Both the position numbers and the translations under genes were made by a program. A stretch of DNA of 530 nucleotides from Escherichia coli (lineage in GTDB: Bacteria > Pseudomonadota > Gammaproteobacteria > Enterobacterales > Enterobacteriaceae). Of this stretch, positions 1 through 530 are shown one piece after another (the first letter of the stretch is position 1; each line of letters starts with the position of its first letter). The notes beneath the pieces are model-generated. The model was not told where the DNA came from and ran no database searches. It saw only the letters and a list, made by a program, of their open reading frames with translations. The stretch lies in assembly GCF_003334765.1 (NCBI RefSeq), contig NZ_QOWT01000114.1. The stretch is one strand, 5' to 3'.

Positions 1-57
1 GTCCTTCATCGCCTCTGACTGCCAGGGCATCCACCGTGTACGCTTAGTCGCTTAACC
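1..57 (-). rRNA. rrl: 23S ribosomal RNA, 5'-terminal fragment (gene continues beyond the window start)
   Basis: The reverse complement of 1-57 reads GGTTAAGCGACTAAGCGTACACGGTGGATGCCCTGGCAGTCAGAGGCGATGAAGGAC, which I recognise as the canonical 5' end of enterobacterial 23S rRNA. Mature 5' end placed at plus-strand position 57 from recalled E. coli sequence, not from a search. Confidence 0.93.
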
Positions 58-164
58 TCACAACCCGAAGATGTTTCTTACGATTCATCATCGTGTTGCG
101 AAAATTTGAGAGACTCACGAACAACTTTCGTTGTTCAGTGTTTCAATTTTCAGCTTGATCCAGA

Positions 165-177
165 TTTTTAAAGAGCA
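165..177 (-). promoter_or_regulatory. Spacer boxA-like transcription antitermination element (NusB/NusE binding site in rrn transcripts)
   Basis: The minus strand reads 5'-TTGCTCTTTAAAAATCTGG-3' across 160-178. Its core TGCTCTTTAAAAA matches the boxA consensus TGCTCTTTAACAA at 12 of 13 positions. A second boxA in the 16S-23S spacer is an established feature of E. coli rrn operons. Confidence 0.65.
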
Positions 178-250: not shown

Positions 251-326
251 TGGCGTCCCCTAGGGGATTCGAACCCCTGTTACCGCCGTGAAAGGGCGGT
301 GTCCTGGGCCTCTAGACGAAGGGGAC
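251..326 (-). tRNA. gltT/U/V/W: tRNA-Glu (anticodon UUC), complete 76-nt gene with encoded 3' CCA
   Basis: The reverse complement of 251-326 is GTCCCCTTCGTCTAGAGGCCCAGGACACCGCCCTTTCACGGCGGTAACAGGGGTTCGAATCCCCTAGGGGACGCCA. It has a 7-bp acceptor stem (GUCCCCU/AGGGGAC), a 5-bp anticodon stem (CCGCC/GGCGG) and a 7-nt loop CU-UUC-AC; the anticodon corresponds to plus 290-292 (gaa). The T-arm GGTTCGAATCC and terminal CCA (plus 251-253) are present. It matches the E. coli tRNA-Glu of the spacer-Glu rrn operons. The paralog cannot be decided from this window; minus-strand placement would fit gltW of rrnG only if the contig follows K-12 orientation. Confidence 0.97.
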
Positions 327-497
327 ACGAAAATTGCTTATCACGCGTTGCGTGATATTTTCGTGTAGGGTGAGCTTTCATTAATAGAAAGCGAACGGCC
401 TTATTCTCTTCAGCCTCACTCCCAACGCGTAAACGCCTTGCTTTTCACTTTCTATCAGACAATCTGTGTGAGCACTGCAAAGAACGCTTCTTTAAGG
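327..497 (-). other. 16S-23S internal transcribed spacer, proximal part (16S to tRNA-Glu)
   Basis: Lies between the 16S 3' end (498) and the tRNA-Glu 5' end (326) on the same strand. No ORF or independent signal; contains a 7-bp perfect palindrome at 340-356. Confidence 0.9.
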
Positions 498-530
498 TAA
501 GGAGGTGATCCAACCGCAGGTTCCCCTACG
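498..530 (-). rRNA. rrs: 16S ribosomal RNA, 3'-terminal fragment (gene continues beyond the window end)
   Basis: The reverse complement of 498-530 reads CGTAGGGGAACCTGCGGTTGGATCACCTCCTTA, the conserved 3' end of bacterial 16S rRNA including the anti-Shine-Dalgarno CCUCC. Mature 3' end placed at plus 498. Confidence 0.95.

Follow-up and report, generated by a model that had tools for sequence, protein, structure and literature searches.

Segment 470-497 of an Escherichia coli 16S-23S spacer as the 16S-proximal portion of the classical 16S processing stem

Two RNase III processing stems of E. coli rRNA are closest to the segment analyzed here: the stem of the 23S rRNA, which Bram, Young & Steitz are said to have described in 1980, and the 16S leader/spacer helix yielding the 17S precursor, which was reportedly described by Young & Steitz in 1978 (PNAS 75:3593). 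When positions 470-497 of the window (the whole stretch of DNA analyzed, 530 nt) were compared with these systems, the stem that contains them was found to be the classical 16S processing stem of E. coli, which is already known. The organism, the operon type and the position are the same, the leader strand that belongs to the window recurs unchanged in each of the seven K-12 operons, and there is no substantial difference. The segment itself, however, stops short of the putative cut (+33|+34) and lacks the last 19 nt of the strand on the distal side (spacer positions count from where the mature 16S ends, +n being window position 498 − n). The 23S processing stem shares the principle that the flanks of a mature rRNA pair over kilobases, and its 5' strand is also in the window. 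It is nevertheless a different helix: it starts directly at the ends of the mature 23S, and in the 16S stem about 88 nt of leader lie between the helix and the 16S 5' end. In the case of Salmonella, the rrsH stem has the same limits (-131..-102 / +17..+47, the in-vitro RNase III substrate) and the same -115 site, but the 3' extension is given as 21 nt (PMC12817084) instead of the 33 nt given for E. coli (PMC3996153, PMC8708148).

Read in reverse complement, the window is a complete 16S–tRNA-Glu–23S spacer of E. coli, of the enterobacterial type, and strain FORC 064 carries a 100 % identical sequence at its rrnB locus, between murI and murB. Eleven complete E. coli genomes were 100 % identical and the window was present in all 5,426 that were searched. 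The RefSeq 16S gene of FORC 064 occupies L001:2992-4533, with L001:4533 equivalent to window 498. The parts of the operon in the window are as follows:

498..530, minus strand: last 33 nt of the 16S 3' end, ...GGAUCACCUCCUUA-3' (Rfam SSU_rRNA_bacteria positions 1501-1533; RefSeq annotation)
326..251, minus strand: tRNA-Glu(UUC)
173..65, minus strand: StyR-44 (RF01830), located in the spacer directly before 23S (Rfam match of 125 bits)
57..1, minus strand: 23S 5' end

At this rrnB-position locus, spacer +1..+62 (window 436-497) has exactly the sequence of K-12 rrnE, differs only slightly from rrnC and is not that of K-12 rrnB. An rrnE-like spacer at the rrnB position is what gene conversion from one rrn operon to another could produce. 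Elsewhere in the spacer, the 23S processing stem has its 5' strand at about 49-117 (minus strand), adjoining and overlapping the StyR-44 match; at -55.9 kcal/mol, this strand pairs with the 3' end of 23S and the flank beyond it (L001:7869-7920). A boxA-like motif, UGCUCUUUAAAAA, was observed downstream of the tRNA-Glu (window 165-177, minus strand), and the leader boxA, UGCUCUUUAACAA, is at L001:2848-2860, directly 5' of the 16S stem strand.

On the plus strand, 470-497 reads GAGCACTGCAAAGAACGCTTCTTTAAGG; the transcript, which is the minus strand, is CCUUAAAGAAGCGUUCUUUGCAGUGCUC, exactly as it had been given in the sequence-only reading of the window. That reading had placed the segment next to the 16S 3' end and its partner outside the window, and both placements hold. 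The segment comprises +1..+28 and abuts the mature end at window 498, and its best partner over 9.5 kb of the operon is in the leader, approximately 1.65 kb upstream. Complementarity to the leader of the same operon, proposed there as the check, was also found. Using the leader of the same operon at the FORC 064 rrnB locus (L001:2619-2991, 373 nt), 21 of the 28 bases pair with L001:2880-2903 (-112..-89), in register with the stem.

This leader carries UAUCAGACAAUCUGUGUG, which is the exact complement of CACACAGAUUGUCUGAUA in the spacer. RNAduplex returned one continuous helix of leader −131..−89 with spacer +47..+6, and the leader/spacer duplex energies for +1..+45, +1..+50 and +1..+60 were −55.2, −57.7 and −63.5 kcal/mol, respectively. 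The stem and its parts were mapped to the window as follows:

451..492, minus strand: full 3' strand of the 16S processing stem, +6..+47 (duplex folding, shuffles and RNAalifold consensus)
451..476, minus strand: RNase III substrate in the strict sense, where +22..+47 pairs with leader -106..-131 over 26 bp without a break (pair list)
470..497, minus strand: spacer +1..+28, where the 3' strand is nearest to 16S and pairs imperfectly (duplex folding and pair list)
464..465, minus strand: putative RNase III scissile bond on the spacer side, +33|+34 (published 17S ends placed on the pair list)
465..497, minus strand: 33-nt 3' trailer kept on 17S, including all of 470-497 (PMC3996153, PMC8708148; cofold)
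439..447, minus strand: predicted distal extension, +51..+59 with leader -136..-144, overlapping the leader boxA (duplex and cofold prediction only)

The 26-bp duplex is composed of 24 Watson-Crick and 2 G.U pairs and provides the unbroken dsRNA of about two helical turns that would serve RNase III as substrate. Towards the 16S it is followed by a bulged section of 6 bp, then 3 bp and then 5 bp, as far as +6. Only 7 bp of the 26-bp duplex overlap 470-497, and the longest unbroken run inside the segment is likewise 7 bp. With the leader (about L001:2879-2904) the segment forms 21 bp with two bulges at -22.6 kcal/mol, and the bases +1..+5, +11 and +21 are unpaired. At the other end, folding predictions suggest that the stem may be extended distally by pairing of 439-447 with the leader boxA region.

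A 2-nt 3' overhang is the signature of RNase III. In the pair list -115 pairs with +31, and a 3' end at +33 therefore leaves a 2-nt 3' overhang, which puts the spacer-side bond at +33|+34, that is, at window 465|464. This putative cut is 5 nt outside 470-497, and the leader-side cut would be -116|-115. The two ends were taken from passages of PMC3996153 and PMC8708148 (citing Young & Steitz 1978), according to which 17S as released by RNase III exceeds the mature 16S by 115 nt at the 5' end and by 33 nt at the 3' end; both ends fall in the 26-bp duplex. Compared with the 21-nt extension in PMC12817084, the 2-nt stagger with -115 in the predicted duplex fits +33 only. In rnc mutants, 17S* ends at −133/+49 (PMC8708148), which is 2 nt past each end of the duplex. 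These 17S* ends and the limits of the Salmonella substrate agree with the mapped stem boundaries. As for the cleavage by RNase III, we infer it from the literature on identical or near-identical sequences (PMC3996153, PMC8708148 and PMC12817084).

The sequence-only reading had regarded 470-497 as the 3' half of the 16S RNase III stem. The segment does belong to the stem strand, but it is only the imperfect, 16S-proximal portion. With regard to its boundaries, +1..+5 (493-497) are unpaired, while the strand runs 19 further bases to window 451 and the putative scissile bond is located in that part. The segment is not the complete 3' half, and it would stay attached to 17S after cleavage. The interval 470-497 is mis-delimited and its limits are arbitrary relative to the structure. 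There is little significance beyond correct annotation, as the structure is the textbook long-range helix that starts E. coli 16S maturation. The useful outcome is a map of the window with the stem strand (451-492), the duplex (451-476), the putative cut (465|464) and the 17S trailer (465-497), in which the interval 470-497 covers just the part retained on the precursor.

We consider it very probable that 470-497 is the 16S-proximal, bulged part of the long-range leader helix, which is cut distally by RNase III, and that the segment is retained on 17S. The observations behind this are its location, the complementarity within the same operon, the statistical excess of pairing, the conservation of the pairing and the geometric fit of the published ends. 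In the primary transcript, spacer +6..+47 would pair with leader -89..-131, about 1.65 kb upstream. RNase III would cut the distal 26-bp section (451-476) at -116|-115 and +33|+34 and free 17S. The segment would then remain on 17S as most of the 33-nt 3' trailer, paired with leader -112..-89, until, according to the literature, 3' exonucleases/YbeY trim the trailer and RNase E/G removes the leader tail. When the 115-nt and 33-nt tails were cofolded, the −112..−89 / +28..+6 helix was kept at -45.5 kcal/mol, and the tails folded separately gave -30.1 and -3.8 kcal/mol. PMC3996153 discusses a 'long helix' that joins the 17S ends, and the cofold is in line with it. It would be a long shot to propose that the proximal helix (+6..+28 with -89..-112), which is bulged and in part self-complementary, is a timing device and not just a passive extension of the RNase III site, a device which holds the 17S ends and gates both the 3' trimming and the access of RNase E/G. 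If it were, the polymorphisms at +15/+21 and the swapped rrnB spacer type could give the operons slightly different maturation kinetics.

Species-representative genomes were scanned for comparable operons, and 69 stretches were obtained. Because CCTTAAAGA was required after the 16S end, the scan returned almost only Enterobacteriaceae. Leader and spacer were found on one stretch for 33 operons, including eight E. coli operons (L001–L008), and these comprise 24 distinct leader+spacer sequences. The seven K-12 operons share one and the same leader strand sequence (−131..−80), and all of them form the same stem. The K-12 spacer strand varies only at +15 (A/U) and +21 (C/U/A). The change at +15 shifts the bulge by one base and leaves the pair count unchanged, and +21 is the bulged base.

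When 15 enterobacterial operon types were compared, 99.6 % of the cells were paired versus 47.7 % or less in slid registers, a count from which columns 31-39 and 60-65 of the MAFFT alignment A1 were excluded, these columns being structure-inconsistent between the E. coli-type and the Enterobacter-type. The pairs of the central bulged region were assessed by per-sequence energies instead. For the proximal part, native leader/spacer combinations averaged −23.6 kcal/mol and swapped combinations −20.1 kcal/mol. RNAalifold gave the same consensus at −46.77 kcal/mol, of which the covariation term was −0.65. One compensatory pair was identified (A-U→G-C in Pseudenterobacter, L029, together with matched 1-nt deletions), and six other pairs have one-sided changes with the pairing kept, among them G·U↔G-C at +26/+27 and G·U↔A-U at +19. 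The covariation score was matched by 41 of 500 shuffles. The covariation signal is limited, because the taxa are close relatives and the search pattern fixed +1..+9.

Chance controls separated the core of the stem from the segment. Against the leader, +1..+48 gave z = -10.2 and the core +27..+46 gave z = -7.7, and neither energy was reached in 1000 shuffles (dinucleotide shuffles for +1..+48). When the 28 nt of the segment were tested on the complete leader (373 nt), z was -1.7 (61/1000 shuffles, not significant), and a rival site within the 23S scored nearly as well (-21.8 vs -22.6). This result is what would be expected if the proximal 28 nt were an unstructured spacer conserved for 3' maturation, with an incidental complementarity to the leader, and if only +29..+47 mattered for RNase III. 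The small number of compensatory changes points the same way, as does Citrobacter sp. R56, in which a hybrid of E. coli-type leader and Enterobacter-type spacer is tolerated and pairs, albeit more weakly (-22.1). However, the segment against the 31-nt leader stretch co-linear with the core gave z = -4.5 (3/5000), in a co-linear partner test adopted after the whole-leader energy test had given no significance. The pairing of the segment is therefore real as a continuation of the core helix and unconvincing by itself. In addition, the E. coli polymorphisms sit exactly on bulge positions, leader/spacer pairs are less stable when swapped than in their native combinations, and pairing is retained through the G.U/G-C swaps at +26/+27 and through the A-U to G-C change with its matched deletions in L029. 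The published in-vitro substrate also takes in +17..+28 (PMC12817084). An incidental pairing is weakened by the co-linear test, the bulge polymorphisms and the native-versus-swapped energies, and we regard it as improbable.

It is still less probable that +5..+19 acts mainly as a local trailer hairpin (AAAGAA-GCG-UUCUUU), perhaps as a stop or entry signal for the 3' trimming enzymes. The variant in the window is a perfect inverted repeat of 6-7 bp with a 3-nt loop, and the 33-nt trailer alone folds with an MFE of -3.8 kcal/mol. Such hairpins are nevertheless very weak (-2.9 to -5.4 kcal/mol, and -2.9 to -3.8 kcal/mol for the variant in the window) and are not conserved, as the spacers of K-12 rrnB/H, of the Enterobacter-type and of Citrobacter MGH106 fold otherwise or barely (-1.3). 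In Pseudenterobacter (L029) the CUUU arm is destroyed, whereas the pairing with the leader is kept via changes in both strands, and the cofold of the 17S ends favours the intermolecular helix over the hairpin by about 11.6 kcal/mol. The chance that a plus-strand feature antisense to rrn, for example a small ORF or an antisense RNA, explains the segment is negligible: the plus strand has no ORF of 25 aa or more that overlaps 470-497, and the opposite strand carries a highly transcribed rrn operon across the region. An Rfam search of 327-497 on both strands had no match at E <= 1. Because 1.6 kb separates its two strands, the long-range stem is not represented as a family in Rfam.

Several other sequences were observed in the scan. 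E. coli- or Enterobacter-type 16S 3' ends and spacers occur on contigs assigned to an Oxalobacter MAG, an uncultured Desulfovibrio and Chryseobacterium sp. 18061 (L049, L050, L056 and L057), and these contigs are probably mis-binned or contaminant. In the more divergent gammaproteobacteria Aeromonas (L015) and Alteromonas (L036/L074), CCUUAAAGA and the core CACACAGAUUG are kept and the intervening sequence is different and longer; these are short contigs that lack the leader and lie outside the pairing comparison. In Enterobacter sp. EA-1, one operon (L038) misses 2 nt from both strands of the core duplex (GU in the leader and CA in the spacer) with the helix kept, and two others (L041 and L042) miss 2 nt on the spacer side only. 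These losses could be either real compensation or an assembly error. Finally, one operon of Kluyvera ascorbata Colony413 (L066) has a G to A change at +34, which produces a C:A mismatch adjoining the putative scissile bond, and a second change (+43 A to G) that keeps a U.G pair.
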